The notes under the pieces are model-generated. The model worked only from the letters and a program-made list of their open reading frames with translations, had not been told where the DNA came from and ran no database searches. Both the position numbers and the translations under genes were made by a program. A stretch of 23,843 bases of DNA from Raja brachyura (Eukaryota), in the NCBI GenBank assembly GCA_963514005.1. It is one part of the record OY740805.1 of this genome. One strand, written 5' to 3'. Shown here piece after piece: positions 7,357 through 7,467 of the stretch. Positions within the stretch are counted from its first letter, which is position 1. Each line of letters starts with the position of its first letter.

Positions 7357-7467
7357 GTTTGTCTCTGTGGGATTGCCTGACGAGGAGCATTATAACGAGA
7401 ACGATGCAGCCTTCCAACAAGACCAACAATGCCACGATCAGCATACGAATGGTGACACTTATCTTCC
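7357..7467 (-). CDS. Transmembrane exon of the NKp30-like receptor
   Basis: Acceptor gttgtcttctccaTAG|GG (7470-7468) and donor C|GTAAGG (7356). 111 nt, phase 1-1, in frame with the V exon: (G)KISVTIRMLIVALLVLLEGCIVLVIMLLVRQSHRDK. A hydrophobic span is followed by basic stop-transfer residues. Confidence 0.85.

Follow-up and report, generated by a model that had tools for sequence, protein, structure and literature searches.

Human NKp30 (NCR3, CD337; PDB 3NOI, 3PV6, 6YJP) is one of the few natural killer receptors traceable to sharks, and its mammalian form is defined by an arginine in the transmembrane (TM) helix. Kinlein et al. reportedly distinguished eight nurse shark NCR3 subtypes in 2021. 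Excerpts of the published work list eight nurse shark NCR3 genes (MT914154-161; PMC12227049) and refer to NCR3 as an MHC-linked VJ gene (PMC12227049, PMC10751288; sole mention there). Acidic TM residues are equally familiar from Ig-family receptors: in CD300C, CD16A, CD147/basigin and CD79A a buried acid in a single-pass TM helix serves helix assembly or signalling. A preliminary description of the locus reported here held that acidic TM residues typify adaptors, which is too narrow, as the receptors CD16A, CD300C and CD147 each carry one. We treat these proteins as analogies only; their ectodomains are unrelated to that of the present gene, and their FxxDT and DxxxT motifs are absent from it, as is the D/ExxxT/S motif that PMC13107469 gives for the CD3 and DAP10/12 adaptors (Val stands at +4). 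Our literature search, with the likeliest shark NCR3 papers outside its reach, turned up no publication that centres on the TM residues of shark NCR3, and the polar-centred subtype described below may already be in print.

The locus lies in a window of 23,843 nucleotides of Raja brachyura DNA (record OY740805.1), which is the whole stretch that we analyzed. The gene belongs to the NKp30/NCR3 family and consists of a leader, one VJ exon and a TM exon, all open and in phase on the minus strand; no other host gene was found in the window. The leader (signal peptide) exon (12983-12938) begins with an ATG at 12983, ends at a phase-1 donor (GTGAGT) and has a tblastn match to the ray leaders P0001 and P0004 that is weak taken alone (E 0.8-1.2). 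The V exon (9057-8719, 339 nt) encodes a single VJ-type IgV domain (Pfam V-set E 7e-10) with four N-glycosylation sequons; both Ig cysteines, the Trp and a GTGT motif lie in this one exon, so that V and J (G strand) are unsplit and of the non-rearranging type. The TM exon (7467-7357, 111 nt) is flanked by AG and GTAAGG and is in phase 1 at each end, in agreement with the V and leader exons. From it the window translation reads, on the minus strand, the peptide TIRMLIVALLVLLEGCIVLVIMLLV.

Identity of the V domain to ray proteins reaches 50%, and its structural model has a pLDDT of 90.8. Foldseek with this model places NKp30 at ranks 1 to 3 (TM score 0.72-0.76, 32-34% identity), with a small margin over SIRPalpha, and a family profile run against solved structures places it at ranks 1 and 2; these top matches uphold the assignment to the NKp30 family made in the preliminary description. 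With a single-sequence search NKp30 ranks third, behind two tandem antibody constructs, and the ESM Atlas returned generic V-set clusters only. Among 1.84 billion representatives the V domain has 475 matches at E ≤0.001, and elasmobranch RefSeq proteins are present among the best 150 of the 475. Word-based protein searches with the V domain (99-315 and 203-2000 residues) found no scoring relative, but they are insensitive and also missed known 50%-identical matches.

We placed the V domain in a midpoint-rooted tree of 61 NCR3-like V domains and 115 columns. It joins nine myliobatiform ray domains (10-row clade, support 99/86), which 16 shark domains join next with weak support (26 rows, 87/72). 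Both groups are nested in a 45-row elasmobranch clade (95/96) that includes the named nurse shark NCR3 proteins P0049 and P0060. The end branch of the window domain is long (0.48), and its placement therefore carries some doubt. Nurse shark NCR3 (GenBank QTT61904.1, QTT61898.1) shares this 45-row clade with the window gene, but one of those TMs is Lys-type and the other neutral. The nearest V domains are those of long-tailed NCR3-like RefSeq proteins from Mobula, Hypanus, Hemitrygon, Heterodontus, Carcharodon, Cetorhinus and Chiloscyllium (e.g., XP_062903900.1, XP_067865378.1, XP_041068138.1). Elasmobranch NCR3-like RefSeq proteins carry automatic names such as pIgR-like, turtle-like or SIRP-like (P0001, P0002, P0012, P0044, P0161), which hides the size of the family and its forms with one to five V domains.

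For the TM comparison we used the 12 nearest-clade shark and ray proteins that have a TM, rows that are non-independent, as they include orthologue pairs and several genes per species. Models without a TM (P0001, P0005, P0051, P0161, P0164) and isoform duplicates (P0151-P0153, P0156, P0158, P0163, P0165, P0167-P0170) were omitted, and P0027 was placed with the basic-TM group. Tails of at least 60 residues are present in 11 of the 12, and [ILVST]xYxx[LVIM] motifs in 8 of the 12. These relatives resemble the window gene in their similar leader, in a TM exon that directly follows the last V and in a polar TM centre; Arg and Cys in the TM distinguish the window gene from them. Ray members have two or three V domains before the TM and Q, S or G in place of Glu, whereas the window gene has one V in the window. 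We define here a long-tailed, polar-centre elasmobranch NCR3 subtype; the window gene has both a V domain in this clade and a polar residue at the TM centre, the latter in a TM register that is weak pairwise. The Cetorhinus protein P0027 has a V domain inside the long-tailed clade yet a basic (Arg-type) TM, so V-domain kinship does not fix the TM type, and its TM hints at paired receptors or exon exchange. P0027 and the Glu-type Cetorhinus protein P0166 have adjacent accession numbers and form a possible activating/inhibitory pair.

We read the TM exon as the membrane anchor of an NKp30/NCR3-family receptor, probably of the long-tailed subtype, whose Glu would pair the helix with a second helix and whose Arg probably has no adaptor role; we consider this reading evenly balanced between right and wrong. 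The exon encodes a very short stalk, 22 residues in which Glu is the sole charge between two Arg, and a basic juxtamembrane end. Its hydropathy, 3.12, is the top value among the 13 hydrophobic stretches listed from the six frames of the window. Arg (codon CGT, 7447-7445), Glu (7414-7412) and Cys (7408-7406) all fall in this one minus-strand exon, and, as the preliminary description had noted, Arg and Glu are 11 residues apart on the same helical face (20 degrees). Glu and Cys are two residues apart on opposite faces (200 degrees). Human NKp30 likewise has one VJ-type V domain and an Arg near the outer TM boundary; it differs from the window gene, which has a central Glu and almost no stalk, in its stalk of 15 residues (PMC7409301). 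The nearest relatives of the window gene lack an Arg in the TM and end in long tails with Tyr motifs.

Depth in the membrane was predicted with a position-dependent insertion scale and weighted segment lengths of 17 to 27. The weighted mean position of the Glu is the bilayer centre itself (offset 0), and at all of these lengths it lies at most 3.5 residues away; in prediction, then, it sits mid-membrane as first described, and not outside the bilayer. The Arg lies at the predicted outer membrane boundary, with an offset of -11 to -12 (weighted mean -11): it is outside the best segment at lengths 17 to 23 and inside, at helix position 2 to 4, at lengths 24 to 27, with a weight of 0.47 for being inside and 0.11 for being at least three residues inside. 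The predicted insertion cost on the same scale is ∼2.1 kcal/mol for Glu and ∼0.4 for Arg, and helix insertion is still favourable with the Glu in place (∼-2.9 kcal/mol). In all eight basic-TM NCR3-like proteins the basic residue is at offset -5 to -8, so the Arg here is some 4 to 6 residues further out. Its distance to the first basic residue on the cytosolic side is 23 residues, compared with 15 to 19 residues to the next charged residue in the basic-TM receptors (six of the eight, those for which a distance was obtained). As a background set we examined 142 search matches, of which 73 have a predicted TM (68 outside the subtype and 5 inside). An Asp or Glu within four residues of the TM centre occurs in 0 of the 68 and in 2 of the 5, and the Glu thus exceeds background. 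Internal Arg or Lys occurs in 15 of the 68 other Ig-family TMs, R/K at offsets -13 to -10 in 10 of them, and acid and base together in none; an outer-edge Arg is ordinary.

These depths bear on an inhibitory-to-activating switch, which we consider rather unlikely. Such an Arg, gained by one base change, would couple the receptor to FcRgamma or CD3zeta, like that of human NKp30, and be pulled to the adaptor Asp pair on ligand binding, with the Glu as a leftover or helper. A single base separates the CGT codon from codons for Leu and for His, which are what rays have in this column, and TM-donor read-through would yield a short tail. PMC1440944 describes the Arg of FcRgamma partners in the N-terminal TM segment, activating receptors that arose repeatedly by such point changes, and an Arg at TM position 3 of FcalphaRI, much like positions 2 to 4 in our 24- to 27-residue helix models. 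Against the switch stand the distance of the Arg from the centre (11 to 12 residues, versus 5 to 8 in all eight basic-TM proteins), its low weight well inside the helix, its absence from all 12 relatives and the good consensus of the TM donor. A second copy of the gene (see below) retains the Arg despite a silent change in its codon, but chance alone would lead one to expect this (p 0.63). Some weight remains with the Arg because human NKp30 Arg143 is also described at the stalk end, where it needs ligand-induced alignment with the CD3zeta Asp (PMC7409301, in part, citing Memmer 2016).

The alignment of the 12 relatives with the window is gap-free across the helix, and a second alignment gave the same register. 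At the Glu column the relatives have E (four), Q (two), T (two), S, G, N and H (one each), with no aliphatic residue; the four Glu belong to sharks only (two Heterodontus proteins, Carcharodon and Cetorhinus), and the four rays, the closest kin, have Q, S, Q and G. At the Arg column 10 relatives have L, one V and one H, and the Cys column is made up of small residues (G six, S three, A two, T one), so that neither Arg, nor Cys, nor the three together occurs in any of the 12. The conservation of R, E and C on which the preliminary description turned is accordingly not found: across these relatives it is the lack of an aliphatic residue at the Glu column that is common to all 12, with Glu itself in 4 and in none of the nearest rays, and the Arg-Glu-Cys triple is specific to this lineage. 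The Glu site itself may be weakly constrained, to judge from these counts. Taken pairwise, the TM register is not statistically secure: it reaches significance against only two proteins, both from Mobula (z 2.7 and 2.3), z is at most 1.5 for the remaining 9 of 11, and the window Glu falls opposite the polar residue in only 6 of the 11 best ungapped fits. The register is otherwise supported by the distance from the exon start and by the independently predicted centre, and the relatives' E, Q, N or H lies within one residue of their own predicted TM centre in seven of eight. A Hemitrygon protein (P0159) comes nearest to the window's pair, with a His in place of the Arg and a Gln in place of the Glu. 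A chimeric TM, with an outer half from an Arg-type paralogue, was tested and gained no support (z ≤0.9 for all eight basic-TM proteins; Arg opposite Arg in three of the eight).

Two further readings concern this column. By the first, which we regard as quite improbable, the Glu would link the receptor to FcRgamma or CD3zeta while the Arg goes unused, much as in CD16A, CD64 or CD300C. An Asp mediates the assembly of CD16A with zeta/gamma, and in CD64 an Asn does so (PMC13107469); CD300C signals through FcRgamma and requires Glu191 (PMC12447643). The E/N/Q exchange at our column resembles the D/N exchange between CD16A and CD64. The FxxDT/FxxNT motif of these receptors is, however, absent (Val at -3, Gly at +1), and CD300C has a short tail, versus the long tails of 11 of the 12 relatives here. 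By the second, the family is a fast-evolving multigene family that tolerates one polar residue in a long hydrophobic helix, so that Arg and Glu have drifted into place with no specific role and the copy might be non-functional. The predicted favourable insertion despite the Glu would allow this, as would a column that spans seven residues including Gly and Ser, and tail exons were not found in the window. We nevertheless think drift distinctly unlikely: a central acid occurs in none of the 68 other TMs, none of the 12 relatives, from sharks and rays alike, has an aliphatic residue in the column, and the gene itself looks intact, with open, in-phase exons for leader, V domain and TM and with the Trp and the two Ig cysteines present.

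Our preferred reading is instead that the predicted mid-membrane Glu would be an inherited hydrogen-bonding site that pairs this helix with a second one, most likely from a copy or paralogue of the same receptor. The receptor would then signal through a Tyr-motif tail of its own, which was not found in the window, and the Arg would probably be a lineage-specific, incidental edge residue with no adaptor role. A contact centred on the Glu is plausible, given its place in the predicted bilayer and the polar column common to the relatives. The free exchange of E, Q, N and H at this column fits hydrogen bonding better than a strict salt bridge; it argues against the latter because the charge-based assembly of TCR-CD3 is compromised when E is replaced by Q or D by N (PMC13107469). 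There are precedents in the same source, where CD79A/B have a Glu-Gln dyad in their own interface, and in PMC4718507, where an embedded Glu in the Leu-rich helix of CD147 is proposed to promote oligomers. For the earlier suggestion of homo-oligomers formed through Glu and Cys, a contact through the Glu is plausible; the Cys faces away from the Glu, so one E/C interface is unlikely.

The preliminary description had also proposed an unconventional dual assembly, in which one helix binds an acidic adaptor through the Arg and a basic-TM partner, such as an Arg/Lys-type NCR3 paralogue, through the Glu. Part of this stands: the Arg and the Glu are indeed encoded and share a helical face, the Glu lies in the predicted bilayer in a polar column, and basic-TM and polar-centre NCR3 paralogues co-occur in Cetorhinus (P0027, P0166) and Chiloscyllium (P0012, P0067). 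The remainder is not supported, as the combination is unconserved (0 of 12 relatives) and the Arg lies further out than in basic-TM NCR3s. Partners bound to the same face would be in competition, the basic residues of the paralogues lie 5 to 8 residues above the centre and not level with the Glu, and the ExxxT/S motif of the CD3/DAP type is lacking, so that we hold dual assembly to be very improbable.

A bolder form of our preferred reading, which we would not expect to prove correct, is that sharks and rays retain a hitherto undescribed kind of NKp30 whose assembly depends on a polar site in mid-membrane, and that this gene is a member caught switching, with pairing through the Glu and binding of FcRgamma or CD3zeta through a newly gained Arg three turns above. 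If sharks and rays have a subtype whose TM centre is polar and whose tail carries Tyr motifs of its own, the ancestral family may well have had several assembly modes and activating/inhibitory pairs, and with the Arg gained here the origin of an adaptor-binding site could be probed with just two mutants.

The form of the tail depends on the route taken at the TM donor, where read-through would give a short tail and splicing a longer one. GTAAGG is a good consensus site; if it were unused, a TAA at 7345-7343, four codons into the intron, would end a short, motif-free tail (read-through segment 7356-7343), and no AATAAA or ATTAAA occurs in 6301-7345 on the minus strand. No exon for a Tyr-motif tail was found on the minus-strand frames of the window, which holds ∼7.3 kb downstream of the TM exon, with a profile of 11 relatives' tails (best E 7.3). 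An unproven 19-nt candidate for a first cytoplasmic micro-exon (6519-6501), one of six open acceptor/donor candidates in the 7,356 nt downstream, ends in phase 2, and the handful of residues that it would encode are similar to those with which the relatives' tails begin. The window contains two assembly gaps (N runs at 427-853 and 23000-23199), the first of which lies on the downstream side of the TM exon, where tail exons could be concealed in it.

The V exon is present in six sequencing runs from two studies, with no RNA run listed among them, which says nothing for or against expression, and we compared reads over the locus in four of the six, from two samples. Run X3 is identical to the window over 7157-7670 and may be the assembly's own source. 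A contig from run X1 differs from the window at seven or more positions in the TM exon (7369-7455), including V to A, V to L, L to V, I to T, H to N and the silent change in the Arg codon, while Glu, Gly and Cys are unchanged among the differences listed; a V-region piece from the same run (8899-9073) has 14 differences. The gene therefore likely has a second copy (paralogue or divergent allele), which on these contigs would be ∼92 to 94% identical. Retention of R, E and C in this copy was rejected as a sign of selection, as its probability by chance through five changes is 0.63. In run X5, of unrecorded type, a contig matches 8718-9019 from its 200th letter at a depth of 9.03, equal to the whole X5 depth over the TM exon, which is what a V-to-TM join would look like.

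Repeats and mobile-element remnants account for several further features of the window. A 45-nt unit in three copies (7200-7334) starts ∼25 nt downstream of the TM exon donor, a degenerate (TCAC)n repeat of ∼250 nt (8384-8637) lies within the intron between the V and TM exons, and a 66-nt SINE-like unit in four tandem copies (97%) occupies 13671-13935, upstream of the leader exon. Fragmented plus-strand frames at 3027-4539 and 14516-14791, without a match in a Pfam search, resemble the C-terminal part of an L1/Tx1-type ORF2. A CR1-type LINE remnant on the minus strand (16796-19242) retains a 648-codon open frame with an RVT_1 domain (E 1.6e-34). Upstream, an endonuclease domain is encoded in a second frame that overlaps the first, the two being split by a frameshift near 18652-18742.
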